From positions 13,037 through 77,036 of the forward strand of contig JAAWCD010000002.1 of the NCBI GenBank assembly GCA_022793095.1: a stretch of 64,000 bases of DNA, in the 5' to 3' direction. Within the stretch, counting starts at the first letter, position 1, and the number at the start of each line of letters is the position of its first letter. Under the pieces are notes generated by a model. It saw only the letters and a list, made by a program, of their open reading frames with translations, was not told the DNA's origin and ran no database searches. Both the position numbers and the translations under genes were made by a program. This DNA comes from Oscillospiraceae bacterium (GTDB lineage Bacteria; Bacillota; Clostridia; Oscillospirales; Oscillospiraceae). Shown here piece by piece: positions 8,695 through 60,573 of the stretch.

Positions 8695-8735
8695 GTTCCT
8701 TTTCTTGAACGAAAAGGAACCGAACTTCAATCTGG
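8695..8735 (-). repeat. family A unit A1
   Basis: Plus strand: GTTCCTTTTCTTGAACGAAAAGGAAC (hairpin) + CGAACTTCAATCTGG (tail). Confidence 0.85.
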
Positions 8736-8755
8736 TTCTACCGGAAAATTCTCCA

Positions 8756-8798
8756 CAGCTTAAAGTTCTTTTGCTTCTTTTCTTTCAAGAAAAGGAGC
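8756..8798 (+). repeat. family A unit A2
   Basis: CAGCTTAAAGTTCTTTTG + GCTTCTTTTCTTTCAAGAAAAGGAGC. The stop codon of the FHA-SEDS gene (8785-8787) lies in the loop. Confidence 0.9.
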
Positions 8799-10521
8799 GG
8801 GGTCCAGGGGCGGAGCCCCTGGGCGGCAGGGGGATGGCGAAGCTGGCGTTCTGCCGGGTGTCGGTGGCTTTCAGGAAGGCCAGGAGGCCCCAGGAGGCCA
8901 GCATGGACGATCCGCCATTCGACACAAAGGGGAACGTTACCCCGGTCAGCGGCAGCAAATCCACCGCGCCGAACATGTTCAGGCAGACCTGAAAGACCAG
9001 CAGGGACATGGCCGCACAGGCCGCAATCGTGTAAAAGCTGGACCGGCCCGCCCGGCAGGCCCGGACCGCAAACACCGCCAGCGTCACAATGGACAGCGCC
9101 GCCAGCAGGGCGATCAGCAGCCCCCATTCCTCGCACAGCATGCCGAACACCAGGTCTGTGTCCGCCGCCGCCACCCGGTGGAGCCAGCCCTTTCCCGGCC
9201 CCACCCCAATCAGGCCGCCGGAGGCCGCCGCCGACATGGCTCTGGTCTGCTGATAGCCCCCGTCAGAGGCAAATTCCCACGCCCGGCCCCAGGTGGCAAA
9301 CCGGTTCATAATATACGGCTTAAACCGCAGAATCATGCCCCCGCCAAACACTGCCCCAGCACAGATCAAGGTCAGGGTGGCAAAGTCTCCGGAGCGCAAA
9401 AAAGCAATCACGAGAAAGGTGACAAAGAAAATCGCCGCTGTTCCGAAGTCGCTCATCAGCGCCAGGCAGAGCAGGGACAGCCCCGTCAGCACCATGAACA
9501 GCCCCAGATTCCGCTTCCGAAACAGCCGGTCCAGGGTGGCCGACCCGGCAAAAATGTAGCAGATCTTGGCCAGCTCCGAGGGCTGAAAGGACATTCCTCC
9601 AATGGAAATCCAGTTGGCCGCGCCATACTTGGCCTCCGTCAGCCCCACCGCCGACAGCACCAGCGTCAGTCCCAGCAGGCCCACCGCGCCCGCGGCCATG
9701 AGCCAGCGAATGGCCTGGACCCGCTTTAAGTCCCGCAGGAAAATGCCCAGCACCAAAAAGAGAAGCAATCCCAGCCCCACCGCAATGAGCTGCTTGAGCA
9801 GTGCGCCGGGCGCTGAGGACGCCGTAATCCCCAGGGAGAGGGTGGAGAGGAAGAAGGCCAGGGTCTCCATTTCAAAGCCCACCCGCCGCAGGGCCCGCTG
9901 AATCAGCACGTAGCTCCACATGAGCAAGGTCAGACAGAGAAAGGAAAAGGGAATGGCCGGGGAAAACTCCGGCCCGGCGGCAACCATCAGCTGGGCCGCC
10001 GTGAGCAGCTGGAAGACCGTGAGCAGCACCAGACTGCCCCAGTGGGGCCGGGCAGCCTCCGCGCTCCGGCGGGCGGAGCGGTAGCGCTCCTGTTCCTGTT
10101 CCGGAACCGCCCGTAACACGGTCTGAACGCCCCCCAGCTCAATAACATCCCCAAACCGGACCGGGGCAGAGGTCTCCACCCGCTTTCCGTTGACGGAAGC
10201 GCCGCCCTTGGAGCCCAGGTCGTAGAGGGTCCAGCCCCCATCTTCGGAGCGGATGAGGGCGGCGTGCTGCCGGGATACGGTGGGGTAGTTGAGCACCACG
10301 TCGGAGCGGGAGGAGCGGCCCAGAATGTTTTCCCAATGGCTCAGGGGCTGAAGGGCCCCGTTGGGCAGGGCGAGCTGCGCCCACAGCTCGGGAATGTGGG
10401 GGACCGTGAGCAGGTCCCGTATGACTCCGGCCAGCATGAGCACCGCCAGCACCGGAAAGCAGAACCGGACCACCGTGGTGAACATCGCCCCCGCCTCGGG
10501 CGACGAAAGCAGCCATTCCAA
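8785..10521 (-). CDS. FHA-domain / SEDS (FtsW/RodA/SpoVE family) fusion protein
   Basis: The N-terminal ~140 aa carry an FHA signature (ILGRSSRSDVVLNYPTVSRQHAALIRSEDGGWTLYDLGSKGGASVNGKRV). The rest is a polytopic SEDS-type protein. Start is TTG at 10521 or ATG at 10485. Confidence 0.88.
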   Translation of the reverse strand: MEWLLSSPEAGAMFTTVVRFCFPVLAVLMLAGVIRDLLTVPHIPELWAQLALPNGALQPLSHWENILGRSSRSDVVLNYPTVSRQHAALIRSEDGGWTLYDLGSKGGASVNGKRVETSAPVRFGDVIELGGVQTVLRAVPEQEQERYRSARRSAEAARPHWGSLVLLTVFQLLTAAQLMVAAGPEFSPAIPFSFLCLTLLMWSYVLIQRALRRVGFEMETLAFFLSTLSLGITASSAPGALLKQLIAVGLGLLLFLVLGIFLRDLKRVQAIRWLMAAGAVGLLGLTLVLSAVGLTEAKYGAANWISIGGMSFQPSELAKICYIFAGSATLDRLFRKRNLGLFMVLTGLSLLCLALMSDFGTAAIFFVTFLVIAFLRSGDFATLTLICAGAVFGGGMILRFKPYIMNRFATWGRAWEFASDGGYQQTRAMSAAASGGLIGVGPGKGWLHRVAAADTDLVFGMLCEEWGLLIALLAALSIVTLAVFAVRACRAGRSSFYTIAACAAMSLLVFQVCLNMFGAVDLLPLTGVTFPFVSNGGSSMLASWGLLAFLKATDTRQNASFAIPLPPRGSAPGPRSFS

Positions 10522-10538
10522 GAAAACGCCCCCTTTCT

Positions 10539-10583
10539 GTTCTTTTTCTTGAAAGAAAAAGAACCAAAAAGAACTTCAAATTT
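10539..10583 (-). repeat. family A unit A3
   Basis: GTTCTTTTTCTTGAAAGAAAAAGAAC + CAAAAAGAACTTCAAATTT. Confidence 0.9.
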
Positions 10584-10814
10584 AAATTTCACCGAATTAG
10601 AAACCACATAATGAATAAATTCTTCGATACAAGCAGGCTTACACTCCATACAGTTCAATATCATCAAAAAACCGTTGTTCAGCTTTCGTAGTCCTTCTGT
10701 CGAGGGCCCTCCCGACGTGTTTGATACCTATCGCCAAGCCGCCCATCGCGGGCGAAAAGAGAAGCGGCGGACCTCCGGAGGGCAACCGCCGTCCTGAAAG
10801 CCGCCGCAGTCCGC

Positions 10815-10872
10815 CAGCATAAAGTTCTTTTGCCTACTTTTCTTTCAAGAAAAGTAGGTCAAGAAAAGTAGG
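10815..10872 (+). repeat. family A unit A4 plus a 14-bp tandem copy of its 3' arm
   Basis: CAGCATAAAGTTCTTTTG + CCTACTTTTCTTTCAAGAAAAGTAGG (to 10858). TCAAGAAAAGTAGG is then repeated at 10859-10872. Confidence 0.9.
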
Positions 10873-11854
10873 AAATTTCGCCGGCCAGGTTGGTGGAGAA
10901 GCAGCGGCGAACCTCCTCCAGGCTGCTGGTCTGGCCCAGAATCCACATGAGCTTGGTGACCGCCGCCTCTGTCGTCATATCGCCGGTCTGGATGACCCCC
11001 TGATCCAGCGCCTTTTGGCCCGTCTGGTACAGGGAAAAGTCGCTCCGCTCATAAAGACACTGGGAGCATACCACCACCGCAATCCCCGCCGCCGTCATCT
11101 TATGAAGCTTGGAAATCAGGTCCCGCCGGATGAAGTGAAGCCCGCCCGCGCCAAAGGCCTCAATGACAATGCCCCGGTAGCGCATACGCAGCAGCATGTC
11201 AAAAATCTCCGGGTTCAGTCCGGGCGTCAACTTGATGAGAAACACATCCCGGCACAGCCGGTTCCGCAGAACGCAGGGTTCTCCGTCATGGACGGGCTGA
11301 ATGTGGAGATTCAGCCCGCTGCCGCTGACTGTGGCGGCCAGGGGCGCGTTCACGCTCTCGAAGGCGTCAAAGCCGGTGGTTTTGGTCTTCACCGCCCGGG
11401 TGCCCAGGATGATTTTCCGGTCAAAGGCCACAAAGACGCCGGGCACCCCGGAGGCCGCCATGGCCAGCGCTGCCCGCAGATTCTCCAGGGCGTCCGTCAG
11501 CGGGTGGTCAATGGAGAGCTGTGCCCCGGTCAGCACCACCGGGATGCCGATATGGAGCAGCATGAAGGACAGCACCGAGGCCGTATACGCCATGGTATCC
11601 GTGCCATGCGTGACCACAATGCCGTCAAAACGGTTTCGGGCCTCGTGAACGGCCCTGGCAATAACCTGCCACTCCTCCGGTTGGATGTTGGAGGAGTCCA
11701 GATGCAGAATGTCCCGCACTGTCAGCTCATAGTGATCCGCCATGGGGCCCAGCCGGTGGGCCATGGCGTCCCCGCCAATTCCCGGCGCCAGCCCCTCCAC
11801 AGTGGGAATCGAGGCAATGGTTCCGCCCGTCGTCAGCAAAAGCAGCCGCTTCAC
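10859..11854 (-). CDS. ansA: L-asparaginase (type I family)
   Basis: LLLTTGGTIAS threonine active-site signature near the N-terminus. The GTG at 11854 is preceded by AAAGGAGG. The track start at 11905 is upstream of the RBS. Confidence 0.88.
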   Translation of the reverse strand: MKRLLLLTTGGTIASIPTVEGLAPGIGGDAMAHRLGPMADHYELTVRDILHLDSSNIQPEEWQVIARAVHEARNRFDGIVVTHGTDTMAYTASVLSFMLLHIGIPVVLTGAQLSIDHPLTDALENLRAALAMAASGVPGVFVAFDRKIILGTRAVKTKTTGFDAFESVNAPLAATVSGSGLNLHIQPVHDGEPCVLRNRLCRDVFLIKLTPGLNPEIFDMLLRMRYRGIVIEAFGAGGLHFIRRDLISKLHKMTAAGIAVVVCSQCLYERSDFSLYQTGQKALDQGVIQTGDMTTEAAVTKLMWILGQTSSLEEVRRCFSTNLAGEISYFS

Positions 11855-11875
11855 GCCGCTTACCTCCTTTTTTCT

Positions 11876-11920
11876 GCCTCCTTTTCTTGAAGGAAAAGGA
11901 GGCAAAGAGCTTTAAACTGG
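11876..11920 (-). repeat. family A unit A5
   Basis: GCCTCCTTTTCTTGAAGGAAAAGGAGGC + AAAGAGCTTTAAACTGG. Confidence 0.9.
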
Positions 11921-11947
11921 TTCTATGGAAAGACGCTCTAAAGAGCG

Positions 11948-11992
11948 CGGTTTGAAGTTCTTTTCGGTTCTTTTTCTTCCAAGAAAAAGAAT
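11948..11992 (+). repeat. family A unit A6
   Basis: CGGTTTGAAGTTCTTTTCG + GTTCTTTTTCTTCCAAGAAAAAGAAT. Confidence 0.9.
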
Positions 11993-11998
11993 GGAAAC

Positions 11999-13093
11999 TC
12001 AAGTTGTATAGGGCTTATTACTGCCGTCCAGGGTGGTGATGGTCACATCGTCCAGGGTCAGCTCCCGCTGGTAGGGGTTCAGCCGCTGGTTTACCATGTC
12101 CACCACCTCCTGGGGATACAGCGCCACATACCAGCCGCCGCCGTACTGAGCTGCGTAGTTGCCTGGCAGGGTGCCGCTGCTGATATCACTCATGTCCAGC
12201 CGGGTCAGCACCTGGTTGGCAAAGGCCGTCATGTTCCTGACCGAAAGATCCGTTTCCACATGGTCCATCACAATGCCCACCAGCTCCGGCACCTTCAGCG
12301 GATGGGCCAGCACCTGGGCCAGCACCGCCTTGATGAGCGCTTGCTGCGTCTCCATCCGCTTTTGATCGTTGTAGCCCGCGTTCACAGAGGGGTCGTTGTC
12401 GTGGCGGTAGCGGACCACTTTAATGGCGTCCGCCCCGCTGAGGCGGGTCATGCCCCGGTTAAAGTGAATGTGGAGCTCCTGACCCGGCGTGGGGTCGTCG
12501 TAATTCATATTGACCGGCACCTCAAAGTCCACGCCGCCCAGGGCGTCAATGCCCGCTACAAAGCCATTCAGGTCCACCTTGATATAGTAGTCGATGGGCA
12601 CGCCCAGCAGCTTCCGAAGCTCCGCCTTGAGCTGGTCCACGCCGCCGTTGTTGTAGGAGCTGTTGATTTTCCGGATTTTCCCGCTGCTGTTGAGAATCAT
12701 GGTGTCCCGCGGCACGCTCACCATGTGGACCTCCTGATTCACCGTGTCATACTGGACCACGATGATGGTATCCGTGCCCCCGTTGTTGTGGTCCGTGCCG
12801 CAGAGCAGAACGTTGTATACACCCTCCCTCCGCTGATGAGTCCCGGACGGTGACGGATTGGACGGCGTAAAAACGTCCTCATCTTCTCCGCCGGCATCTG
12901 GCAGCTCCGGCAGGGCGCTGGTCTCCTCCGGGAACAGCGGCAGGTCGGGCAGAACGGTCATATATTGATAAATACAGAATCCCACGACAATAAAGGCCGA
13001 GAGAATCACCAAAAAGCGATAAAACCGGGAAAATCCGCTCCGCTTTGGCTTCTTTTTCATCCGGCGGGGCTGCTGCTTGATACGAGAACCCAC
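11999..13093 (-). CDS. LytR-CpsA-Psr (LCP) family cell-envelope phosphotransferase
   Basis: N-terminal TM segment, then YNVLLCGTDHNNGGTDTIIVVQYD...VSVPRDT, typical of the LCP domain. GTG start with GAGGAGGGG upstream. Confidence 0.88.
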   Translation of the reverse strand: MGSRIKQQPRRMKKKPKRSGFSRFYRFLVILSAFIVVGFCIYQYMTVLPDLPLFPEETSALPELPDAGGEDEDVFTPSNPSPSGTHQRREGVYNVLLCGTDHNNGGTDTIIVVQYDTVNQEVHMVSVPRDTMILNSSGKIRKINSSYNNGGVDQLKAELRKLLGVPIDYYIKVDLNGFVAGIDALGGVDFEVPVNMNYDDPTPGQELHIHFNRGMTRLSGADAIKVVRYRHDNDPSVNAGYNDQKRMETQQALIKAVLAQVLAHPLKVPELVGIVMDHVETDLSVRNMTAFANQVLTRLDMSDISSGTLPGNYAAQYGGGWYVALYPQEVVDMVNQRLNPYQRELTLDDVTITTLDGSNKPYTT

Positions 13094-14666: not shown

Positions 14667-14685
14667 AACTCACCTTCTTTTTTCT

Positions 14686-14912
14686 CTTCTTTTCTTGTAA
14701 GAAAAGAAGCCAGCTTGTCGAAAAAGAGGAAATTAAAAATAGAATGACAAAACTGCGAGGGCTTTGAGTGGGGGGATAGTGTGAAAGGGGGGCGAAGCCC
14801 CCGCTTTCGCGTGCAGTCACCCGCCCGCAGGCGACTGATTTCGTCAGAATGACGAAATCAGCTTCAGGCTGTCGACTTTGTCGACAGCCTGAAGCAAAAG
14901 AACTTCAAACTG
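14686..14912 (-). repeat. family A unit A7, split by family B copy B1
   Basis: Hairpin CTTCTTTTCTTGTAAGAAAAGAAG at 14686-14709. The tail AAGCAAAAGAACTTCAAACTG at 14892-14912 is separated from it by the 181-bp insertion. Confidence 0.85.
14711..14891 (-). mobile_element. family B 180-bp MITE-like element, copy B1
   Basis: About 90% or more identical by eye to the copies at 19949 and 38584. Termini are CAGCTTGTCGA...TCGACAGCCTG. Flanked by AAGC at 14707-14710 and 14892-14895. Confidence 0.85.
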
Positions 14913-14939
14913 CCTTCTTTGGTCAATTTCCGTCAGAAT

Positions 14940-14981
14940 CAGTTTGAAGTTCTTTTCGTTTCTTTTCACTCTGAAAAGAGA
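14940..14981 (+). repeat. family A unit A8
   Basis: CAGTTTGAAGTTCTTTTCG + TTTCTTTTCACTCTGAAAAGAGA. It ends 1 nt before the stop codon at 14982. Confidence 0.85.
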
Positions 14982-16061
14982 TCAACCCACGTAATAAAAT
15001 GCGTCGTCGGGAATCGCGCCGCCGATGGATGTGGGATCGGCGGTATAGAGCATGCTCAGGTAGTCCTGAAGGGCGGGCTGAATCTCCGCGCCGGTGACAC
15101 AGACCAGATTACAGTCCGGAATGGCCCGCAGGGCAATCTGCTCGTTGGCAGTGATTTCAAATTGGGCCACCATGGGAGCGGCCTCCTCCGGGTTCTCCTT
15201 CACGTAGTTGACCGACTCCCCGTATTCCTCCAGAAAGGCGGAAACCAGGTCGGGATGCTCCTCCAGGAAGCCCGTCCGGGCCACCACACACCCCATGGTC
15301 AAGACGCTCCCATTGGTGACGGAGCTGTTCCAGACCTCTGTCAGGTCCAGTGCTGCCCGCACGTCCGGATTCTTCATCTGTACCGCCGTGGCCGCGGGCA
15401 CCGGCAGCATGCACACCTCCGCCTCACCGGAAGCCATTAGGGCTGTGATTTCATCCGCGGCCCGCCACTCAATGGTCACATCCTCGCCAGGGGTCAGGCC
15501 GTTCTGCTCCAGCAGGTAGTTCAAAACGTACTCCGGGTTGGCGCCCTGGCCGGTGGCATAGATGGTCTTTCCCGCCAGGCCGTCCATGGACTGGATGCTG
15601 TTTCCGTTTTCCAGCAGGTAAAGCACACCCAGGGTGTTTAGCGCGATGACCTTGATGCCGCCGTTGGTTTTCTGATAGAGGGACGCGGCCAGATTGGTGG
15701 AAATGGCCGCGATGTCCAGCTCGCCGTTGACCAGCTTTGGGACAATCTCATTGGCCGGGTCAGAGGCAAGCGTGACGTTATAGACCAGCGCGTCAGACGA
15801 AAGCTCATTGTCATAGAGCAGCTTAGCCGCGCCCACACCGGTGGGGCCCTTCAGCATGGCCAGATTGACCTTAACCATATCTCCGCCGGGGGTGGGCTCG
15901 GGCGCGTCTGTGGGCTCAGGCGAGGGGGTGGGTTCCACGGAAGCCGTGGGTTCTGTGGTGGGCGGGTTGGTTTCCTCCGCAGGCTTGGGGCCGCAGCCAG
16001 CCAGCAGAGTACAGGAGAGCGCCGCCGCCAGAGCGAGGGCTATGATTCGAGTTCGGTTCAT
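14982..16061 (-). CDS. ABC transporter substrate-binding lipoprotein (NMT1/THI5-like, NitT/TauT family)
   Basis: Lipobox ALSCTLLAGC, a Pro/Thr/Glu-rich linker, then a periplasmic binding-protein-like body. Operon context with the permease and ATPase. Confidence 0.85.
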   Translation of the reverse strand: MNRTRIIALALAAALSCTLLAGCGPKPAEETNPPTTEPTASVEPTPSPEPTDAPEPTPGGDMVKVNLAMLKGPTGVGAAKLLYDNELSSDALVYNVTLASDPANEIVPKLVNGELDIAAISTNLAASLYQKTNGGIKVIALNTLGVLYLLENGNSIQSMDGLAGKTIYATGQGANPEYVLNYLLEQNGLTPGEDVTIEWRAADEITALMASGEAEVCMLPVPAATAVQMKNPDVRAALDLTEVWNSSVTNGSVLTMGCVVARTGFLEEHPDLVSAFLEEYGESVNYVKENPEEAAPMVAQFEITANEQIALRAIPDCNLVCVTGAEIQPALQDYLSMLYTADPTSIGGAIPDDAFYYVG

Positions 16062-16099: not shown

Positions 16100-16306
16100 C
16101 TCTTCTTTTCTTGCAAGAGCCTGTTTAACATCTCCGGGTGCGCCGGATGGGCCGGAATTTTTTCGTCCAGCAAGGAAAAAAGCGCAGGAATCCTGGAGTA
16201 TTCCGAGCATGTTTGACGCCGCAGGACGGAAAAAGGCCGGTTCAGACGGTGCGTCAGGAGATGTTAAACCAGATCATAAGAAAAGAAGCAAAAGAACGTT
16301 AAACTG
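16100..16306 (-). repeat. family A unit A9, hairpin loop interrupted by family C element
   Basis: The left part, CTCTTCTTTTCTTGCAAGAG, is at 16100-16119. The right part, ...ATAAGAAAAGAAG + CAAAAGAACGTTAAACTG, is at 16273-16306. Confidence 0.8.
16120..16272. mobile_element. family C 153-bp TIR element (MITE-like)
   Basis: Terminal inverted repeats: CTGTTTAACATCTCC at 16121-16135 and GGAGATGTTAAACCAG at 16257-16272. No ORF. It sits inside a family A hairpin. Confidence 0.7.
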
Positions 16307-16333
16307 ACGGGACCTTTGCACAAACAGGGGCTG

Positions 16334-16373
16334 GAGGTTCTTTTTGATTCTCTTCCTTAAGGAAAGAAGGAGC
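16334..16373 (+). repeat. family A unit A10 (degenerate)
   Basis: GGAGGTTCTTTTTG + ATTCTCTTCCTTAAGGAAAGAAGGAG. It ends 5 nt before the crp-family stop codon. Confidence 0.45.
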
Positions 16374-22000: not shown

Positions 22001-22045
22001 CTTCTTTTTCTTGAAAGAAAAAGAAGCAAAAAGAACGTTAAACTG
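22001..22045 (-). repeat. family A unit A11
   Basis: CTTCTTTTTCTTGAAAGAAAAAGAAG + CAAAAAGAACGTTAAACTG. The hairpin ends 15 nt upstream of the ATG at 21985. Confidence 0.9.
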
Positions 22046-25540: not shown

Positions 25541-25568
25541 ATTATATCCTACCTATGCCTGTTGTCAA
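25541..25568 (-). promoter_or_regulatory. sigma-A promoter of glyQS
   Basis: Minus strand: TTGACA, a 16-nt spacer, then TATAAT, about 55 nt upstream of the ATG. Confidence 0.6.
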
Positions 25569-25627
25569 TCCGCAGGGGACCAAAAAACGACCTTTTTTCA
25601 GGGAATTCCATAGCAAAAAAGACGGAA

Positions 25628-25670
25628 CCCGCTTTCTTGAAAGAAAGCGGGGCAAAGAACTTTAAACTGG
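25628..25670 (-). repeat. family A unit A12
   Basis: CCCGCTTTCTTGAAAGAAAGCGGG + GCAAAGAACTTTAAACTGG. Confidence 0.9.
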
Positions 25671-30976: not shown

Positions 30977-31678
30977 TCACCACTCAATCTCTTCCACCGG
31001 GGTGGGGTTGCCGTTGAGCTCCATAGCGGCGACCTTGCCGCTATGGATGTGGATGACCCGGTCGGCCATGGGGGTCAGCGCGGTGTTGTGGGTGATGACC
31101 ACCACAGTGACGCCCTTCTGGCGGCAGGTGTCCTGCAAGAGCTTCAAAATGGCCTTGCCGGTCACGTAGTCCAGGGCGCCGGTGGGCTCGTCGCAGAGAA
31201 GGAGCTTGGGGTTTTTGGCCAGGGCCCGGGCGATGGCCACCCGCTGCTGCTCGCCGCCGGAGAGCTGGGCGGGGAAGTTGTTCTTCCGGCCGGCCAGCCC
31301 CACATGGTCCAGCACACCGGCGGCGTCCAGAGGGTCCCGGCAGATCTGGGCGGCCAGCTCCACGTTTTCCAGGGCGGTCAGGTTCTGGACCAGGTTGTAG
31401 AACTGGAAAACGAAGCCGATATCATACCGGCGGTAGTTGGTCAGCTCCTTGGCGTTGTACCGGCTGACCTCCGCGCCGTCCACCAGAATCGCGCCGGAGG
31501 TGGCGGAGTCCATGCCGCCCAGAAGGTTTAGCACAGTGGTCTTGCCCGCGCCGGAGGGGCCGACGATGACCACGAACTCGCCCTTTTCCAGGGAAAAGGA
31601 GATATCCTCCACCGCAGTGATGGTGACCTCTCCCATTTGATATTGTTTTACAACATGTTCCAGTGTAATAAATGACAT
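30977..31678 (-). CDS. ABC transporter ATP-binding protein (MacB/LolD-like)
   Basis: [13 protein letters not shown]..., [29 protein letters not shown]. The ATG at 31678 is preceded by GGGAG. Confidence 0.92.
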
Positions 31679-31704
31679 GTGATTCGCTCCCGTACCGTTT
31701 TTCT

Positions 31705-31749
31705 CCACTTTTTCTTGAAAGAAAAAGTGGCAAAAAGAACTTTAAGCTG
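31705..31749 (-). repeat. family A unit A13
   Basis: CCACTTTTTCTTGAAAGAAAAAGTGG + CAAAAAGAACTTTAAGCTG. Confidence 0.9.
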
Positions 31750-38554: not shown

Positions 38555-38583
38555 AAGCCCGGCAGCCAATTGACTGCCGGGCT
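38555..38583 (+). repeat. left copy of a 29-bp duplicated terminator hairpin flanking B3
   Basis: AAGCCCGGCAGCCAATTGACTGCCGGGCT versus 38764-38792 (28/29). Confidence 0.85.
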
Positions 38584-38763
38584 CAGGCTGTCGAGTTTCT
38601 CGACAGCCTGAAGCTGATTTCGTCATTCTGACGAAATCAGTCGCCTGCGGGCGGGTGACTGCACGCGAAAGCGGGGGCTCTGCCCCCCTTTCACACTATC
38701 CCCCCACTCAAAGCCCTCGCAGTTTTGTCATCCTATTTTTAATTTCCTCTTTTTTGACAAGCT
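38584..38763 (+). mobile_element. family B 180-bp MITE-like element, copy B3
   Basis: CAGGCTGTCGAGTTTCTCGACAGCCTGAAGCTGATTTCGTCATTCTGACGAAATCAG...TTTTGACAAGCT. Confidence 0.85.
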
Positions 38764-38792
38764 AAGCCCGGCAGTCAATTGACTGCCGGGCT
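38764..38792 (+). terminator. right copy of the duplicated hairpin (followed by TTTTT)
   Basis: AAGCCCGGCAGTCAATTGACTGCCGGGCT + TTTTC. Confidence 0.7.
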
Positions 38793-38876
38793 TTTTCACA
38801 TGTGACGCGATTCTAGGTCCGCTTACCAGACTGGGGAAAAGGCCCTTCTCCCAAAGGGCGCCGCACTTACACCCGA

Positions 38877-38916
38877 TTAAAGTTCTTTTGCCTACTTTTC
38901 TTTCAAGAAAAGTAGG
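38877..38916 (+). repeat. family A unit A14
   Basis: TTAAAGTTCTTTTG + CCTACTTTTCTTTCAAGAAAAGTAGG. 39 nt are identical to A4. It ends 1 nt before the ricT stop. Confidence 0.9.
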
Positions 38917-40140: not shown

Positions 40141-40186
40141 CTTCTTTTTCTTGAAAGAAAAAGAAGTAAAAAGAGCTTTATACTGG
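40141..40186 (-). repeat. family A unit A15
   Basis: CTTCTTTTTCTTGAAAGAAAAAGAAG + TAAAAAGAGCTTTATACTGG. Confidence 0.9.
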
Positions 40187-41167: not shown

Positions 41168-41207
41168 TGAAGTTTCCTTCTCCATTTTCGTTTGGACGTT
41201 GTTTATC

Positions 41208-41246
41208 GTTCTTTTTTGGTTCTTTTTCCTTCAAGAAAAAAGAACC
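41208..41246 (+). repeat. family A unit A16a (tail truncated)
   Basis: GTTCTTTTTTG + GTTCTTTTTCCTTCAAGAAAAAAGAACC. Confidence 0.75.
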
Positions 41247-41254
41247 GGCAGTTT

Positions 41255-41290
41255 CTCTTCTTTTCTTGAAGGAAAAGAACTTCAAACTGG
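41255..41290 (-). repeat. family A unit A16b (internal deletion)
   Basis: CTCTTCTTTTCTTGAAGGAAAAGAACTTCAAACTGG. Confidence 0.75.
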
Positions 41291-43183: not shown

Positions 43184-43215
43184 TTTAAAGTTCTTTTCCT
43201 TGAAAGAAAAAGAAG
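43183..43215 (+). repeat. family A unit A17 (compact)
   Basis: ATTTAAAGTTCTTTTCCTTGAAAGAAAAAGAAG. Confidence 0.75.
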
Positions 43216-45434: not shown

Positions 45435-45458
45435 GTAATAGCCTCCAAAGTTTCTTCC

Positions 45459-45501
45459 CTTCTTTTCTGGAATGAAAAGAAGCAAAAGAACTTCAAACTG
45501 G
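45459..45501 (-). repeat. family A unit A18
   Basis: CTTCTTTTCTGGAATGAAAAGAAG + CAAAAGAACTTCAAACTGG. Confidence 0.9.
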
Positions 45502-45595
45502 CGTACCGCGGCAGTTTTCAAGGAGCGCTTTGCCCTCAGGACGGCCCGGCGGGGTCATTGGGCTCTACAGAGCTGCGCTGACTGACAGATAACCG

Positions 45596-45639
45596 CAGTT
45601 TAAAGTTCTTTTTGGTTCTTTTTCTTTCAAGAAAAAGAC
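45596..45639 (+). repeat. family A unit A19
   Basis: CAGTTTAAAGTTCTTTTTG + GTTCTTTTTCTTTCAAGAAAAAGAC. Its last base is part of the yidD stop codon. Confidence 0.9.
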
Positions 45640-45857
45640 TAGGGAACAGGGTCGTACTCGATGGTCTTTTGCCGGTGAAAGGGGTGGCATTTGCTCAGCC
45701 GGCGCACCGCCAGCCAGCCGCCTTTCCAGAAGCCGTACTTTTCAATGGCTTCCAGAGCGTAGGCCGAACAAGTGGGAATAAACCGGCAACAGGGCGGACG
45801 GCTGGGGGACACGTTGGTCCGATACCAGCGAATCAGCCAAAGAATCAGCCGCTTCAC
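45639..45857 (-). CDS. yidD: membrane protein insertion efficiency factor YidD
   Basis: (V)KRLILWLIRWYRTNVSPSRPPCCRFIPTCSAYALEAIEKYG. The GTG at 45857 overlaps the rnpA stop (GTGA). Confidence 0.88.
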   Translation of the reverse strand: MKRLILWLIRWYRTNVSPSRPPCCRFIPTCSAYALEAIEKYGFWKGGWLAVRRLSKCHPFHRQKTIEYDPVP

Positions 45858-46671: not shown

Positions 46672-46714
46672 CAGTTTAAAGTTCTCTTGCTTTTTTTCTT
46701 GAAAGAAAAGAAGC
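46672..46714 (+). repeat. family A unit A20
   Basis: CAGTTTAAAGTTCTCTTG + CTTTTTTTCTTGAAAGAAAAGAAGC, about 155 nt upstream of dnaA. Confidence 0.85.
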
Positions 46715-48186: not shown

Positions 48187-48376
48187 TCCACCAGTTTTCC
48201 ACTTTTCCACAGAATTACACACAATTTTAATCCACATCCAGTAAAACTTTTCGGCACTGTGAAAAGTTATTCTATTTTTCCACAAAGATTTCAACATCTA
48301 TTTTTCCTAGCGCTTCAACTGTTTCCCGCTCTTTTCCACAAAAAATTCCCCTACTACTGCTATTACTAAAAATACT
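48184..48376 (+). other. oriC segment: DnaA boxes, DnaA-trio-like repeat and AT-rich stretch
   Basis: Boxes: TAATCCACC 48184, TTTTCCACT 48195, TTTTCCACA 48203, TAATCCACA 48228, TTTTCCACA 48276 and TTTTCCACA 48332. CTA CTA CTG CTA TTA CTA follows at 48351-48368, then AAAAATAC. Confidence 0.75.
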
Positions 48377-48462
48377 CTCTTTTCTTAGCCTCTTTCGCCT
48401 GAACTCCCACTGTTTCTCCCAACCTGCCTACAAAAGGTCTTTATGAAATGGAGGACCCATTC

Positions 48463-51611: not shown

Positions 51612-53600
<1,989 letters not shown>

Positions 53601-53613
53601 GGAGGGATTGGAA

Positions 53614-56130: not shown

Positions 56131-56136
56131 GGGGCA

Positions 56137-57105: not shown

Positions 57106-57510
57106 ATGAAGTCGAAAGTCACCTTAAAGGAAGTTGTAGGAACAAAAATTATTTATGCGGTACTTCTTGTCTGCTATTACTGGATGTGGGCAAGAAGGGA
57201 TTGGCATAGTTATTATGAAACCATCCAGAATACAGTTGTTATATTTACCATTATATTTTTTGCGTTGCAGGCAATCCGCATTTATAAGTACAGCAAGGAA
57301 GAAAAAGACGAGCTGGCAATTCAAAATTTACGCAGAACAGATGCAATCGGATTGAAAGTTATGATAGCCGCTGATAGTATCATTGCCTTTGCCTGTGCTG
57401 TCAAATGTATTGATGAAGCAATGGCAGGCTACGCGCTTGTTGGAATGATATTAGTATTAGCTGTTGTACGATTTATCATATTTTGTGTGATGGACAGCAA
57501 GGGAGTCTGA
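57106..57510 (+). CDS. small 4-TM membrane protein (partner of the short XRE regulator)
   Basis: 134 aa, AT-rich. GGAGGAATGGAGC precedes the ATG at 57106. Confidence 0.6.
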   Translation: MKSKVTLKEVVGTKIIYAVLLVCYYWMWARRDWHSYYETIQNTVVIFTIIFFALQAIRIYKYSKEEKDELAIQNLRRTDAIGLKVMIAADSIIAFACAVKCIDEAMAGYALVGMILVLAVVRFIIFCVMDSKGV

Positions 57511-57571
57511 TGTCCTCGGGCTGTCATACGATTTGTCATATTCTGCGTGCCGGACAGTAAGGGAGTCTGAT
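57461..57571 (+). repeat. imperfect tandem duplication (51 nt x 2, period 60)
   Basis: 57461-57511 versus 57521-57571: 42/51 identical. Both copies end in AAGGGAGTCTGAT. Confidence 0.85.
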
Positions 57572-57775
57572 ATGGCCCTTAAAACGAAGGTCAAGGAATA
57601 TCGGGAAAAAGCAGGATTAAAACAGAGCGAATTGGCAGAATTGGTACATGCGAGGCGTGAGACGATTGTGCATCTGGAAAACGGGAGGTATAATCCATCC
57701 CTGAAGCTGGCGATGGATATAGCAAACGTTTTTCATGCGACGGTGGAGGAGCTGTTTGAATTTACAGATAACTGA
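57572..57775 (+). CDS. short XRE-family HTH regulator
   Basis: MALKTKVKEYREKAGLKQSELAELVHARRETIVHLENGRYNPSLKLAMDIANVF. Confidence 0.88.
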   Translation: MALKTKVKEYREKAGLKQSELAELVHARRETIVHLENGRYNPSLKLAMDIANVFHATVEELFEFTDN

Positions 57776-57844
57776 TTCTGGAAGCCATACAGGGAGCGAT
57801 TGATTTCCATCAAGATTTTTTGGGGCGAATGAGTAAAGCAAAAA

Positions 57845-57874
57845 GGAACCGCATGAGACAGCTCATGCGGTTCC
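57845..57874. terminator. bidirectional intrinsic terminator
   Basis: AAAA-GGAACCGCATGAG-N4-CTCATGCGGTTCC-TTTTT. Confidence 0.8.
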
Positions 57875-58039
57875 TTTTTCATTAGAGCAGGACACGAAAA
57901 TAATGAAAAAAAGGAAGCGAGGACAAAGGAGGCAAAACAAGGCAGACGGCGCAGGCGAGCTGACGCCCGTCAAGGAGGACAACGATGTTATGCCTCTTTT
58001 GGACCGCTGAACGTTTCTCATTATTTTTGGGTGCTGCTT

Positions 58040-59599
58040 TTAGGTTCCAAGATAAGAGAAGTGCATGTAATCCCGGTTATACTCACCCCAGGCGTCACCG
58101 CCCCAGGTGAAGCCGTACTTTTTGAAGATGCGGACCACAGAGCAGTCCTCGGAGAAAGAATAAGGGTTGATACCTGGCTCCCAGGCATTGCCGACTTTAA
58201 CTTCAAAGTTAATGACCTGGGGATTGGCGCTGACATTGATATCCAAAGCCAGGCCCCACTTGTGCTCGGAGCTGCTGCTGTCTCCACGCCAGGAATAACC
58301 GCCTATGTCAGAGATGGGGAACTGTTCCGGGTCGTTGAAGATCTCGTTGAACACGGACCAAATGATATGTTCCAGCTTCTCGTGGACCGTAACCGTCATG
58401 TTGCCGGCGGTCTTGGTTCCGTCGCCGTTCAGCTTCCATACCGGAACCTTGACTGACACCATATGAGGCTGAGTTTCCGCCTGTGTAGCGTACCGGGGGC
58501 CGCCGTCAAAGATATAATCCTCTGGGTCGGTCCAGTCGCCGCCATAATCATACCAGCCATATTCGTCTACGGCGGGCACCAGACCGGAGGAGTTGAAGTA
58601 GAAGTTCATATCGGTAATGATGGGGTAGGGAATGGGCAAATCAGGGGATTTCAGCTCGTTGTTGAGCACCCGGTAAGCCAACACAATGGCCTGAGCCCGG
58701 CTGCTGGGGCTGAGGGGGTCAATGAGGCCGTTGCTGCCGTTGACCACACCGTAATAGAGAAGGGTGCTTGTGGAAGGCTTGGCCCAGTCAGCCACCTGTG
58801 TGCCGTCCACATAGTAATTCAAAAAGGCCATGGCGGTGAAGAGGGAGAGACTGTTGGTCCAGCGGGTGCTGTCCATCAGCTCTGCCATCATCTTAAACAT
58901 CTCCTGCCGGGTGATCTGCTTGTCAGGCTGGAAGGTGCCGTCCTCGTAGCCGTTCACAAAGCCCAGCTCATGGGCCCGGTCAATGACCGGATCATTTACA
59001 TCGGAGAAATATTCGGAAGGCTTGTTCCCCTCATCCTCGTCTTCCCAACTGTCTTGATCGTCCCAATCATTCCAGTCGTCATTTTGATTGCTGTCGCCGT
59101 TTTCGTTGATGTCAGGACGGTCCGGCTTTTCCCGATCTTCTTCATCTAAAGGGTCCATCCACCAATAGTCATCCGGATCGTATACGGATGTAGAGCCGTC
59201 AGCATAGATAAAGTGCAAATCTCCGTATCCATCATACCAATAATCTACGATATTATCATCATAATAGTAGATGTCGGGGAGTTGGCCATCAATGGACTTG
59301 GCCGTCTGGGGTGCGCTGTACCAGATCCAGGGATAGAAAAAATAATCATCATCGTAATAAGAGCCTGAGGAGCTGCTCCGGTTATCGTAGGCGGAGACAA
59401 TCACATGGCAGAACTCCCGCCGGGTGATGTTCTGGCTCAGGTCGGCGTTTTCCAGCAGCTCAGGAATGATTCCGGCGGCGTCAGCAGATTGGATTTCCTG
59501 GGTAAAGTAGTCAGGAACACCGGTATAGGCGGCCGCTGAGCCGATTAGAGAGCAGCAGAGCGCGGCCGCAAGCAGTGCGGCCAGGATACGGTTCTTCAT
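58040..59599 (-). CDS. secreted SLH-repeat protein with C-terminal M15 (VanY-like) peptidase domain
   Basis: Signal peptide MKNRILAALLAAALCCSLIGSAAA. SLH-like segments (ELGFVNGYEDGTFQPDKQITRQEM; VADWAKP...). The C-terminus carries SEHKWGLALDIN and DYMHFSY metal-ligand motifs. GGAGGG RBS. Confidence 0.8.
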   Translation of the reverse strand: MKNRILAALLAAALCCSLIGSAAAYTGVPDYFTQEIQSADAAGIIPELLENADLSQNITRREFCHVIVSAYDNRSSSSGSYYDDDYFFYPWIWYSAPQTAKSIDGQLPDIYYYDDNIVDYWYDGYGDLHFIYADGSTSVYDPDDYWWMDPLDEEDREKPDRPDINENGDSNQNDDWNDWDDQDSWEDEDEGNKPSEYFSDVNDPVIDRAHELGFVNGYEDGTFQPDKQITRQEMFKMMAELMDSTRWTNSLSLFTAMAFLNYYVDGTQVADWAKPSTSTLLYYGVVNGSNGLIDPLSPSSRAQAIVLAYRVLNNELKSPDLPIPYPIITDMNFYFNSSGLVPAVDEYGWYDYGGDWTDPEDYIFDGGPRYATQAETQPHMVSVKVPVWKLNGDGTKTAGNMTVTVHEKLEHIIWSVFNEIFNDPEQFPISDIGGYSWRGDSSSSEHKWGLALDINVSANPQVINFEVKVGNAWEPGINPYSFSEDCSVVRIFKKYGFTWGGDAWGEYNRDYMHFSYLGT

Positions 59600-59622
59600 A
59601 GAATCCCTCCACTTCATGTTAT

Positions 59623-59662
59623 CTTCTTTTCTTGAAAGAAAAGAAGCAAAAGAACTTTTTGC
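59623..59662 (-). repeat. family A unit A22 (tail truncated)
   Basis: CTTCTTTTCTTGAAAGAAAAGAAG + CAAAAGAACTTTTTGC. Confidence 0.85.
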
Positions 59663-59962
59663 AAAACGTTGTTTTGCTTTAACAACACATGTGTTCATTA
59701 TATACCTGCATTCGACAAATTTCAAGGAGGACAAGGAGAAATAAAAATCAGAGTTCCATTTTCCCATATATTTTTTGGATGTGAGCCTGCTATGAGGAAA
59801 GCCCATATCCATTGAAAGAAAGTTGCTTTTCAACGGGTGTTCCTTTATAATAATTTCGCCGGTAAATCCAGATTTATCGAAAGGATGCTGTAATGTTAAT
59901 TTGCGTTGCTTGCCGCAACGGGTTATTCTCCGTATAATAGCAGTGAAAGGAGGCCGTCCCTG

Positions 59963-60472
59963 ATGCTGAATGAAAACATTAAAACGATCAGAAAATCCAA
60001 AGGACTTTCGCAAGAGGAACTTGCAGTCAAGTTGAATGTGGTGAGGCAGACAATCTCGAAATGGGAACAAGGGCTGTCGGTTCCAGATGCTGATATGCTG
60101 ATTTCCATATCAGAGGTATTTGAAACACCTGTGAGCACACTGCTTGGAGAAACCGTTGCCGAGACGAAGGCTGATGACTTAAGAGCAATTTCCGAGAAGC
60201 TTGAGGTCATAAACCTACAGCTAGCGCATAGAAAAATGACGAGACAAAAAGCGGTTCATTGGTTTTTTATCTTATTGTGTATGGGTATAGCAGCTATTTT
60301 TGCAGCCCTGATAGAGTTAAATAGTCCTTATGTGGGTTGGGATTATGAGCAACCTGAAACCGCAGTAATCGGAGTAGTGTTTCACGCATGTGAGTGGTTG
60401 TTCGTTAGAATAGCGCCGCTTGTCTTGATTGGATCAATCGTTGGGGCTTGTTTGACACGAAAGAAAGTGTAA
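59963..60472 (+). CDS. XRE-family HTH protein with C-terminal transmembrane domain
   Basis: MLNENIKTIRKSKGLSQEELAVKLNVVRQTISKWEQG..., then two hydrophobic helices. GGAGG RBS. Confidence 0.8.
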   Translation: MLNENIKTIRKSKGLSQEELAVKLNVVRQTISKWEQGLSVPDADMLISISEVFETPVSTLLGETVAETKADDLRAISEKLEVINLQLAHRKMTRQKAVHWFFILLCMGIAAIFAALIELNSPYVGWDYEQPETAVIGVVFHACEWLFVRIAPLVLIGSIVGACLTRKKV

Positions 60473-60498
60473 AATCCTCTGAGATATGCAGCATAAAA

Positions 60499-60533
60499 AG
60501 GACAAGGCAGACCGCTCTGGTCTGCCTTGTCCT
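60499..60533. terminator. bidirectional intrinsic terminator
   Basis: AGGACAAGGCAGACC-N5-GGTCTGCCTTGTCCT is preceded by AAAA and followed by TTTC. Confidence 0.8.
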
Positions 60534-60535
60534 TT

Positions 60536-60573
60536 CAAGTTCTTTTTGCTTCTTTTTCTTGCAAGAAAAAGAA
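60536..60573 (+). repeat. family A unit A23
   Basis: CAAGTTCTTTTTG + CTTCTTTTTCTTGCAAGAAAAAGAA. It ends at the base before the aspS stop codon. Confidence 0.85.

Follow-up and report, generated by a model that had tools for sequence, protein, structure and literature searches.

A tail-and-hairpin repeat, which we call family A, recurs between the genes of the window (the whole stretch of DNA analysed, 64,000 nucleotides from a gut Clostridia genome), and we consider it, with a probability of roughly 0.6, to be a dispersed, non-autonomous palindromic DNA element of the REP/BIME/MITE kind. The observation itself is confirmed: the core CTTTTTCTTTCAAGAAAAAG, searched on both strands with up to 3 mismatches, gave 21 strand-matches in the window versus 0.00 in 100 dinucleotide shuffles of it. 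Units were listed by means of the tail anchor and a covariance model with its filters off, which yielded 18 full-length units (E<=4e-5) and about 5 further ones that are degenerate (41256-41285 on the minus strand, 43185-43215 and 16332-16370 on the plus strand) or split (14686-14912 and 16102-16306). The total of 23 in 64 kb, spanning 8.7-60.6 kb with 0 expected by chance, agrees with the 23-24 copies counted in an earlier, sequence-only reading of this DNA. That reading also placed all copies between genes or over last codons in a GC-rich setting, and gene calls and base composition support it: all units are intergenic or overlap only the last codons of called genes, and their 40-45 AT-rich bases have a GC content of 0.24-0.44 versus 0.55-0.66 in the surrounding DNA. 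The dnaA-to-rnhA block (46.9-56.9 kb), described there as free of copies, is indeed empty in the covariance-model scan, the gap extending over 46.9-59.6 kb. The basic module has three parts, namely a tail, a perfect hairpin and an asymmetric loop. The tail is a conserved flank of single-stranded type (..CAGTTTAAAGTTC-Tn-G), the hairpin combines a variable outer stem of 3-5 bp with a conserved inner stem C-Tn-C / G-An-G, and the loop reads TTTCAA in 159 of 166 units. In 162 of the 166, the T-run of the tail equals in length those of the two stem arms, which a simple selfish-repeat model would not lead one to expect.

From left to right, the first unit (8695..8730, minus strand; degenerate tail TTGAAGTTCGGT, hairpin GTTCCTTTTC-GTTCAA-GAAAAGGAAC; 41.6 bits, E 4.9e-8) forms the left half of a tail-to-tail doublet, its hairpin abutting the 3' end of the plus-strand gene 7913-8689; the loop of the right half (8760..8798, +; 55.6 bits, one T·G pair) contains the TCA that is the opposite-strand TGA stop of the FtsW/FHA gene 8785-10521. 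The hairpin of 10539..10579 (-; GGTTC class, n=5; 53.4 bits) stands 17 nt upstream of the start of the same gene. Half the loop and the right arm are tandemly duplicated (TCAAGAAAAGTAGG twice) in 10819..10869 (+; CCTAC class, n=4; 67.2 bits; covariance-model span 10819-10858), and the duplicate encodes the last codons, ..SYFS*, of an asparaginase gene. Directly upstream of that gene's ribosome-binding site and GTG lies the hairpin of 11877..11915 (-; GCCTCC class; 49.2 bits), left half of a doublet whose right half, 11952..11992 (+; GGTTC class, loop TTCCAA; 42.8 bits), abuts a LytR-family gene stop with its hairpin. Family A is itself the target of two other small repeats, families B and C. 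A family-B element splits the unit 14686..14912 (-; tail 14894-14912, insert ~14710-14893, hairpin 14686-14709; 26.9 bits for the hairpin, 20.1 bits for tail and foreign hairpin), which sits upstream of an ABC ATPase gene and tail-to-tail with 14944..14982 (+; 32 bits), a unit with a divergent hairpin and the loop TTCACT that abuts an NMT1-like gene stop. The unit 16102..16306 (-; 12.7 bits for the tail half) is interrupted in its loop by a MITE-like family-C insert of ~160 nt (16118-16277, terminal repeats TGTTTAACATCTCC), with the tail at 16289-16306, the left arm at 16278-16288, and half the loop and the right arm at 16102-16117; tail-to-tail with it, the degenerate 16332..16370 (+; 12.5 bits, E 0.48) abuts a Crp-family gene stop.

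Single minus-strand units follow at 22001..22041 (GCTTC class, n=5; 48.8 bits), its hairpin 15 nt upstream of a transketolase-N ATG, at 25627..25665 (CCCGC class, n=3; 40.3 bits), upstream of the perfect sigma-70-type promoter (25568-25541) of a class II tRNA-synthetase gene, and at 31705..31745 (CCAC class, n=5; 53.6 bits), upstream of the ABC ATPase gene 30977-31708. The hairpin of 38877..38916 (+; CCTAC class, n=4; 68.2 bits) lies 2 nt past the TAA stop of a PSP1/YaaT gene, and 40141..40181 (-; variant tail ATAAAGCTC; 44.2 bits) fills the 78-nt holB-PSP1 spacer, where another strain has a family-B-like insert after the tail and a 22-nt tail duplication. The CdAMP_rec-holB spacer holds 41203..41245 (+; 29.5 bits), half of the sole hairpin-to-hairpin doublet. 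In the short unit 41256..41285 (-; 26 bits), which carries a deletion between the T-runs of tail and left arm, the tail doubles as left arm; the same is seen in 43185..43215 (+; reversed loop TTGAAA; 15.3-20.7 bits), downstream of the canonical terminator of jag. Upstream of yidC, the tail of 45458..45496 (-; loop ATTCCA; 43.1 bits) faces across ~100 nt that of 45600..45640 (+; 47.2 bits), an exact consensus match abutting the yidD stop. The rpmH-dnaA intergenic region contains 46676..46714 (+; reversed loop TTGAAA; 35 bits), ~160 nt upstream of dnaA. Finally, 59622..59660 (-; 54.6 bits) is preceded by a small hairpin, GCAAAACAACGTTTTGC, and lies 23 nt upstream of the ATG of an SLH/peptidase M15 gene, and 60534..60574 (+; palindromic loop TTGCAA; 38.4 bits) abuts the stop of aspS (60574-62355).

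The usual arrangement is an inverted tail-to-tail doublet with its hairpins outward against gene ends and a variable spacer inside, and every taxon examined shows it, the window as well as Acetobacteraceae, Rikenellaceae, Bacteroidales and AT-rich Clostridia; tandem arrays are occasional (L140, L066). Doublets measure 100-300 nt with inverted ends of roughly 45-60 nt and fold with z-scores of -3.4 to -5.8; as a single strand, a doublet is predicted to form a three- or four-way junction. The halves of window doublets differ from each other in outer stem and T-run; in Acetobacteraceae, too, the two halves are unlike each other, and the whole doublet is conserved.

The outer stems vary between units yet stay complementary, as had been claimed from the sequence, and all of the pairs quoted there (GCCTCC/GGAGGC, CCTAC/GTAGG twice, CCAC/GTGG, CCCGC/GCGGG, GTTC/GAAC and GTTCC/GGAAC) were found in place. 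At the stem pairs 7-10 from the loop, 74 of 84 in the window units are Watson-Crick, far above chance: with right arms permuted among window units, the mean was 38.8 (sd 5.3), and none of 5000 permutations reached 74/84. In a set of 120 distinct units drawn from 100 sources, 97.7% of the cells in the stem are paired, both-sided changes occur at 7 of 10 stem pairs, and the covariation score is 0.536, versus 0.152 shuffled and 0.06-0.13 slid. G·U pairs occupy only about 15 of 1152 cells (~1%) in this sample, a scarcity that fits a palindrome obliged to pair on both DNA strands. Relative to local transcription, 11-12 window units are forward and 11 reverse; in the full set of loci, 60 hairpins are directed toward a gene start and 95 toward a gene end. 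Considering that both orientations are equal and G·T pairs rare, we favor a DNA-level element over a cis-regulatory RNA, which is further disfavored by the absence of an Rfam match. Of the initial suggestion of a REP/REPIN element or a structured RNA, the first part stands as a likeness (dispersed extragenic palindromes, inverted doublets, gain and loss), and the second is disfavored.

Searches for known families gave 0 Rfam matches in the window at gathering score and only tRNAs at 18 other loci; by E-value, the window and these 18 loci returned only miRNA-precursor noise. The 14-mer core does not occur in the searched literature either, in line with the impression that this is not a described repeat, and in its behavior family A resembles a hitherto undescribed relative of selfish palindromic repeats of the REP/MITE type. 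No mobilising gene was found in the window, which has housekeeping genes only, and no protein family recurs beside the units in ~0.9 Mb of unit-bearing DNA. The scanned neighbors include no transposase, HUH enzyme or integrase, and no RAYT (Y1 HUH) gene was found among the sequences scanned within these 64 kb and the 8-kb samples from other genomes. The ORFs between units at most 2.6 kb apart encode portal, protease, shikimate-pathway, Dus, cupin and similar proteins. No target-site duplication was recognisable at the window doublets or in an Acetobacteraceae alignment, and no parent insertion sequence with family A ends was found. With no GTAG/CGTC tag, AT-rich stems and no RAYT found, membership in REP/RAYT proper is not established.

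Family A is far broader than one lineage: it spans several phyla and also turns up in phage contigs. In an exact pattern scan, 23 viral contigs carried it, as did at least 117 genome stretches, so copies are not confined to the window. Its hosts span GC 0.31-0.74 and include Oscillospiraceae, other Clostridia, cultured Pseudoflavonifractor, Acetobacteraceae, Rikenellaceae and a deltaproteobacterial MAG; since copies outside the Clostridia adjoin housekeeping genes typical of Gram-negatives (LpxK, OEP, MotA/ExbB, DUF1329), mis-binning does not account for these copies. A 22-nt core is near-identical across phyla, which is unusual for REP/RAYT systems and counts against the REP/BIME/MITE reading. 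Short-read contigs in four other assemblies end at or near units.

Units are very dense locally in some lineages and absent from close syntenic relatives. One such relative (L154, PSP1 identity 77%) is free of units over 21 kb, and its orthologous spacers measure 69, 87 and 52 nt plus one gene overlap, versus 205, 262, 78 and 119 nt in the window; three others (L152, L153, L155) likewise lack any unit. In Pseudoflavonifractor a unit separates dnaN from yaaA, two genes that are 20 nt apart in the window, and the genomes L063 and L123 differ in unit content at two junctions. Copies are therefore gained and lost at operon junctions, as the absence from 21 kb of the syntenic relative indicates and as the comparison of orthologous intergenic regions bears out. 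At shorter distances, a strain 99.3% identical overall carries the units of 40-58 kb unchanged, and the near-identical strains compared captured no unambiguous, polarised new insertion. Unit 38877-38916 is unchanged in relatives with coding-DNA identities of 96% and 87%, and units are 100% conserved in a relative with 86.6%-identical coding DNA. That they are better conserved than the flanking coding DNA could point to a host-level function rather than selfish spread. One arm of a unit shows patch conversion between 94%-identical phage contigs.

Taken as a dispersed DNA element, family A would spread by copy-and-paste through a hairpin-forming DNA intermediate, single-stranded or cruciform, recognised by a structure- and flank-specific enzyme acting in trans, much as REPs are acted on by RAYT and IS200/IS605 ends by TnpA. 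Propagation would then depend on an intact hairpin, which on this proposal would give rise to the compensated stems, and patches may be exchanged among units by gene conversion. The hairpins probably also have a secondary, host-level effect on mRNA ends, because they stand flush against stop codons and ribosome-binding sites.

The placement of the units bears on an unlikely alternative, namely that the module punctuates operons by acting in RNA: hairpins at the stop and upstream of the ribosome-binding site would protect the 3' and 5' ends of cistrons, and the AU-rich tails would be cut by an RNase of the Y or E type, or the doublet by RNase III. The hairpin indeed faces the gene and the tail points away in 22 of 23 window units, and over 166 units the median distance to the gene end is 5-14 nt on the hairpin side versus 101-141 nt on the tail side. 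Forward units precede start codons by 15-30 nt, reverse units follow stop codons by 0-10 nt or provide the stop themselves, units between phage structural genes are placed in the same way, and the full conservation of units in the relative with 86.6%-identical coding DNA agrees with such a role. However, a doublet with outward hairpins that inserts into short operon spacers produces this placement trivially, and a signal read in RNA would not require the same 22-nt core in phyla whose RNases differ. G·U pairs are nearly absent, the unit at 25665 is upstream of a promoter and hence outside the transcript, and syntenic relatives presumably express the same operon without family A. A function in punctuation does not exclude a mobile origin.

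We find it very improbable that the units are double-stranded binding sites for a recombinase, nucleoid protein or global regulator, with the palindrome as two half-sites around the 2-bp asymmetric center TC, the tail as a third (GTTC-Tn), and the doublet as a three-site, res-like locus. Such an array would accommodate the three C-Tn-S copies of equal n in each unit (162/166), the preserved asymmetric center (TTTCAA, 159/166), and the hybrid units and duplications, which break at the loop. Half-sites need no mutual complementarity, though, and yet outer stem positions 1-3 are 81-91% Watson-Crick over 119 distinct variants; moreover, no cognate gene was found among the scanned neighbors, and sites at nearly every housekeeping operon junction are unlike a regulon. 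Still less credible to us is that the outer stem is copied from the flanking target upon insertion or excision via a hairpin intermediate, making the compensation mechanical. The arms are perfect rather than wobble-paired, and at one junction between L063 and L123 the genome without the unit reads CCTAC at the very point where the unit's gene-side arm starts; but the L123 site retains a GTTCAA relic and may be a decayed unit, and unrelated loci and unrelated genomes share identical arms (GTTC in all ~20 Acetobacteraceae copies, CCTAC at >15 loci, GATAC in one MAG). Ordinary transcription signals, finally, can practically be dismissed despite the location at gene ends and starts: the AT-rich stem (DNA folding energy -9 kcal/mol) is followed by a T-run on neither strand, GC-rich terminators of the canonical kind, with T-runs, occur elsewhere in the window, including beside unit 43185, a scan of 8-27 kb found no terminator-like site at a unit, no hexamer pair of fixed spacing is readable across units, and 0 of 10 promoter-like sites in a consensus scan of 8-27 kb fall across a unit's conserved tail and loop.

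Among known systems, the dispersed-element reading places family A closest to several palindromic families without establishing it as a member of any. Like REPs, BIMEs and REPINs, it is a short extragenic palindrome with a one-sided conserved flank, compensated stems and high copy number (REPs are 20-40-nt extragenic imperfect palindromes in many copies; here there are 23 in 64 kb), often in inverted doublets and occasionally in tandem arrays, located just past stop codons, targeted by other insertion elements and causing assembly breaks. Unlike REPs, it lacks a GTAG or CGTC tag, the flank being AAAGTTC-Tn-G and GTAGG appearing only as one among many outer-stem variants; its stem is AT-rich within a GC-rich genome, its conserved flank measures 12-20 nt, and no RAYT was found in the scanned DNA. 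The partners of window doublets differ in outer stem and T-run and so are probably not a co-replicating REPIN, and the core is common to several phyla, whereas REPIN-RAYT systems are reported to be lineage-specific and are described as mostly vertically inherited (10.1101/2022.05.22.493013). Doublets resemble MITEs (Correia/NEMIS, ERIC/IRU, RUP) as 100-300-nt composites with long imperfect terminal inverted repeats, within the 50-500 nt of a non-coding element so bounded; both are AT-rich, intergenic, near gene ends, patchily distributed and predicted to form long hairpins when transcribed. Family A differs in lacking a detected target-site duplication or parent IS with matching ends, in that each terminus is itself a perfect hairpin, and in its variable extreme termini (the outer stems) and conserved inner parts, the opposite of transposase-bound terminal repeats. 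Integron attC sites are likewise folded single-strand recombination sites at gene-cassette boundaries that conserve structure over sequence, but they conserve the outer R''/R' boxes (RYYYAAC/GTTRRRY) and vary in the center, while family A does the reverse, its stem base being variable and GTTCTTT not fitting GTTRRRY; the flanking genes here are core housekeeping genes in conserved synteny, with no integrase among the scanned neighbors. As for IS200/IS605 elements and their PATEs, the end hairpins are on the same strand and imperfect, whereas those of family A are inverted and perfect, with no TnpA or TnpB nearby; nevertheless, a subterminal hairpin with a short conserved flank is the natural type of substrate for a Y1 HUH transposase, whose chemistry would explain selection for a foldable stem irrespective of its sequence.

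The window comes from around the replication origin of an uncultured Clostridia MAG of Oscillospiraceae type: rpmH, rnpA, yidD, yidC and jag lie to one side, and dnaA, dnaN, recF, gyrB and gyrA to the other. An identical dnaA product is encoded in GCA_949507905.1 as well as in assemblies from ENA and Logan. GC content is 0.55-0.66 over most of its length. Family A, an AT-rich repeat consisting of a tail and a hairpin, is a real repeat here: its 20-nt core, at up to 3 mismatches, gave 21 strand-matches in the window and 0 in 100 shuffles. By combining tail anchoring with a covariance model run with filters off, we identified 18 full-length units (E ≤ 4e-5) and about 5 further units that are degenerate or interrupted, for a total of 23 spanning 8695-60574; the same approach found no units in 1-8.6 kb or in 46.9-59.6 kb. 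The seed alignment of the model included some idealised sequences padded to equal length, and the reported matches are all real sequence. These numbers agree with the sequence-only reading, which had counted 23-24 copies, all between genes or over last codons only, and had noted an empty stretch at 46.9-56.9 kb; indeed, each of the 23 units is intergenic or overlaps the last codons of a gene. Low-GC stretches (0.36-0.50) occur at 288-702 and at 56.9-60.5 kb; the latter, possibly of foreign origin, contains an SLH/peptidase M15 gene besides small HTH-type genes. Several DnaA boxes of the TTTTCCACA type lie in the AT-rich dnaA-dnaN spacer (48187-48447; GC 0.38), which probably forms part of oriC, and one family A unit (46676) sits in the rpmH-dnaA spacer.

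Each unit begins with a tail (roughly ..GNAGAACCAGTTTAAAGTTC-Tn-G), followed by a variable outer stem of 3-5 bp, an inner C-Tn-C, the loop TTTCAA, G-An-G and the complement of the outer stem. The stem and loop core of the consensus first drawn by eye is present, and the tail reaches further than was drawn. The folding energy of a single unit as ssDNA is close to -9 kcal/mol (z between -2.9 and -4.8). The outer stems are compensated: all examples first picked out by eye were found in the window, and of the stem pairs at positions 7-10, counted from the loop, 74 of 84 are Watson-Crick, against 38.8 ± 5.3 when right arms are permuted (0 of 5,000 permutations as high). The repeat thus withstands the shuffled control named beforehand as a possible refutation. 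A covariance-model search of 100 sources yielded 129 units, 120 of them distinct, and in the resulting alignment, which was fitted to the structure, 97.7% of cells are paired and 7 of 10 pairs changed on both sides (256 cells), with a covariation score of 0.536 versus 0.152 after shuffling (reached in 0 of 500) and 0.06-0.13 with the partner slid. A model-free count of outer positions 1-3 gave 81-91% Watson-Crick pairs over 119 distinct variants. G·U-type pairs make up only about 1% of cells, a scarcity that is atypical of RNA helices and is expected of a palindrome pairing on both DNA strands, or of one corrected by templating; the asymmetry between G·T and A·C was uninformative as to the folding strand, owing to the small number of non-Watson-Crick pairs.

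Unit anatomy also follows a rule of length. The loop is asymmetric, and its orientation with respect to the tail is nearly constant: 159 of 166 units read TTTCAA. Among these 166 units, from more than 100 loci, the T-run is equally long in tail and left arm in 162 (n of 3, 4 and 5 in 92, 39 and 31 units, respectively), and in 163 the right-arm A-run has the length of the left-arm T-run. Within a unit, the tail TTC-Tn repeats the left-arm C-Tn directly and also mirrors Tn-CTT. There are four candidate explanations: the tail might pair alternatively with the right arm, a triplex might form, the unit might hold three protein half-sites, or sub-families might have descended under strong constraint. 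To our knowledge, no known repeat family has been described with such a structural rule, and the three-fold matched T-run is both concrete and testable. Presumed resemblances to a hix half-site, to the pC194/phiX174 nick site CTTG^A and to the IS91 targets GTTC/CTTG are taken by us as leads only.

Family A is not confined to the window: a scan with the exact pattern AGTTCTTT-N(2-10)-TTTCTTTCAAGAAA matched 23 viral contigs and at least 117 genome stretches. Among the genome matches listed, about 83 are from Clostridia (Oscillospiraceae, Acutalibacteraceae, Ruminococcaceae, Christensenellaceae and Anaerotignum, with Pseudoflavonifractor phocaeensis and P. capillosus as cultured carriers), about 22 are from Acetobacteraceae and other Rhodospirillales (including the cultured Endosaccharibacter trunci), 5 are from Rikenella MAGs, 1 is from a Bacteroidales MAG and 5 are from one deltaproteobacterial MAG. 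The GC content of carrier hosts ranges from 0.31 to 0.74. Since the non-Clostridial units are flanked by Gram-negative housekeeping genes (LpxK, OEP, MotA/ExbB, DUF1329), we regard the spread across phyla as real; one Planctomycetota-labelled and two Janthinobacterium-labelled contigs look mis-binned. Doublets, in which two inverted units lie tail to tail with their hairpins outward, were found in every one of these groups; the spacer measures 35-190 nt and is itself often a palindrome. On the phage contig L011, units lie between the terminase, portal and protease genes. BLAST of the unit consensus against annotated collections returned one unannotated match, on a Pseudoroseomonas plasmid, and no phage match; low-complexity masking may hide others.

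Even among relatives, the distribution is patchy, with gain and loss of units and conversion between them. No unit occurs in 21 kb of L154, from a syntenic relative whose PSP1 is 77% identical and whose genes from dnaN to PSP1 stand in the same order, and its orthologous spacers measure 69, 87 and 52 nt, plus one gene overlap, versus 205, 262, 78 and 119 nt in the unit-filled spacers of the window; units were also looked for in L152, L153 and L155, and none were found. Relatives with 96% and 87% PSP1 protein identity retain both PSP1-flanking units, whose hairpins are 100% identical where the coding DNA is 86.6% identical, and in a strain 99.3% identical to the window, units are identical throughout 40-58 kb. 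The dnaN-yaaA spacer, 20 nt long in the window, holds a unit in Pseudoflavonifractor. No target-site duplication or polarised new insertion of family A was seen in the compared loci. The genomes of L063 and L123 (~88% identical) differ at two operon junctions; at one of these the unit-less genome retains CCTAC and a GTTCAA relic, which would fit either direction of change. One junction of this pair also suggests that outer arms might derive from the target, a reading that is outweighed by the recurrence of arms across loci. Between two 94%-identical phage contigs, an orthologous unit (L018 ~1695, plus strand; L017 5474) has only its 6-nt left outer arm swapped (CTCCGC versus TCAAAC), leaving a hybrid, non-complementary stem; this swap is evidence of patch gene conversion from another unit. 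Unrelated to family A is a ~355-nt GC-rich insert with hairpins and three tandem copies of CCCATCCCGCG, present in the Oscillibacter-like genome of L063 (7151-7526) and missing at 477-498 of its 88%-identical relative L123.

Family A units are themselves targeted by other repeats. Family B, an element of ~185 nt with three or four hairpins whose stems vary among copies yet stay complementary, lies either at the junction between tail and hairpin of a family A unit or directly after a terminator hairpin, with long flanking duplications (the 22-nt tail or a 29-nt hairpin). The first kind of site is seen at 14710-14893 (minus strand) and the second at 38584-38763 (plus strand), where the 29-nt terminator hairpin is duplicated at ~38555-38583 and 38764-38793; further copies are present in L001 (1-83), L148 (1-100) and L151 (1-140). 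Family B carries an outward sigma-70-like promoter (TCGAAA-16-TAGAAT, 14718-14745), matches nothing in Rfam, and may be either a small RNA gene or an independent mobile element. In strain ERZ14651004, as well as in the 87% relative, a related element follows the tail of unit 40181, with 22 nt of the locus-specific tail duplicated around it; the window strain does not carry it, and on the simplest reading it would have been lost there by deletion between the duplicated tails. Family C, a ~160-nt MITE-like insert (16118-16277) with terminal inverted repeats TGTTTAACATCTCC(N)G, lies inside the hairpin loop of unit 16102-16306, possibly flanked by a CTT duplication. In addition, half of the loop and the right arm (TCAAG-An-G-outer) are tandemly duplicated from the same start, T|TCAAG, at four independent loci (window 10856-10869, L011, L046 and L054), in two cases encoding the last residues of the upstream gene (..YFS*, ..TFS*). 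Given the family C insert and these four duplications, the loop appears to be a favoured break point.

Placement relative to genes is regular. In the window, 22 of 23 units have the hairpin toward the nearest gene and the tail away from it, and the majority are paired as tail-to-tail doublets (8695-8798, 10539-10858, 11877-11992, 14686-14982, 16102-16370 and 45458-45640), with a single hairpin-to-hairpin pair (41203-41285). Forward units stop 15-30 nt short of start codons, flush with the ribosome-binding site, and reverse units start 0-10 nt past stop codons or provide the stop themselves: an FtsW-like gene is terminated by the loop TGA of a unit, and the end of an asparaginase gene (..SYFS*) is encoded by a duplicated arm. 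Over all 166 units, the median distance to the gene boundary is 5-14 nt on the hairpin side and 101-141 nt on the tail side. Orientation to local transcription is neutral (11-12 forward and 11 reverse in the window), and a check for replichore bias found a roughly even strand split among units left of the origin. When folded, doublets give three hairpins, and the Acetobacteraceae version gives a four-way junction (z between -3.4 and -5.8). Head-to-tail arrays resembling BIME-2-type arrays are present on two rabbit-gut Clostridia contigs (L140 ~1250-1560, 4 copies with a 100-nt period; L066 ~700-850, 3 copies with a 50-nt period). Placement beside stop codons might suggest an intrinsic terminator, which we reject given the AT-rich stem, the lack of a T-run after it and the canonical terminators nearby. 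A promoter is rejected because the loop-to-tail spacing is variable and the one perfect promoter found lies outside the unit, downstream of unit 25665; that promoter (TTGACA-16-TATAAT, 25541-25568, minus strand) precedes a class II tRNA-synthetase gene, ~60 nt downstream of the unit at 25627-25665. A set of regulon operators is excluded by the complementarity of the variable positions within each unit, and integron attC by the absence of attC-type core sites.

In line with the sequence-only reading, which had recognised no described family, Rfam searches of the window, the split unit and 18 loci from other taxa with gathering and E-value thresholds returned only tRNAs and miRNA-hairpin noise. 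The core 14-mers had no match in a literature full-text search (10-mer matches were all eukaryotic primers), and the REP, RAYT and MITE literature, including a MITE review, contained no such element for these taxa. A search of ~0.9 Mb of DNA carrying units turned up no mobilising gene: all-against-all clustering of 2855 ORFs from 140 loci, Pfam analysis of 30 window proteins, and examination of 60 neighbours of non-Clostridial units and of the ORFs between two nearby units returned housekeeping, phage structural or unassigned proteins only.

The best-supported reading is that family A is a REP/BIME- or MITE-like non-autonomous DNA element. A structure-specific enzyme encoded in trans would act on the hairpin and its conserved flank. 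On this reading, family A has spread into the operon spacers of some lineages and has crossed between phyla; we infer a single-stranded or cruciform intermediate, such an enzyme, and copy-and-paste spread. From flush placement and conservation, a secondary host-level role in mRNA-end protection or processing is plausible. Family A also probably shapes the expression of many housekeeping operons, as it directly abuts stop codons and ribosome-binding sites in core genes, besides supplying stops and C-terminal residues. With a probability that we would put at roughly one in five, a single module may have spread over at least three phyla and their phages, propagated and kept perfectly foldable by a putative structure-specific DNA enzyme that reads the three-fold T-run as a "ruler" (through tail/right-arm alternative pairing or a Py·Pu·Py triplex), with dense carriers having co-opted the module as standard cistron punctuation.

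If family A is mobile, Clostridia, Acetobacteraceae and Bacteroidota would harbour a REP-like system with a putative mobilising enzyme and an unusually wide host range; the 22-nt conserved core of family A makes it easy to trace. It also has a practical cost: it breaks short-read gut Oscillospiraceae assemblies into gene-sized contigs, and so degrades MAG quality. In four other assemblies, the contigs with the PSP1 gene run to just 1.3-1.6 kb and break off at or close to the repeats on either side. ERZ14499323 NODE_11598 (L150 ~1-40) starts with an Illumina adapter fragment, ACACGACGCTCTTCCGATCT, fused within a unit, which is an assembly artefact at the repeat.

The sequence-only reading had compared the unit with REP/REPIN elements or structured RNA motifs. 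Family A fails the REP tag test, carrying neither GTAG nor CGTC, its stems are AT-rich, it has no demonstrated RAYT and it is common to several phyla, and for these reasons we do not place it in the REP/RAYT family. Family A works in the same way as REP, BIME and REPIN elements, and as hairpin-forming MITEs.
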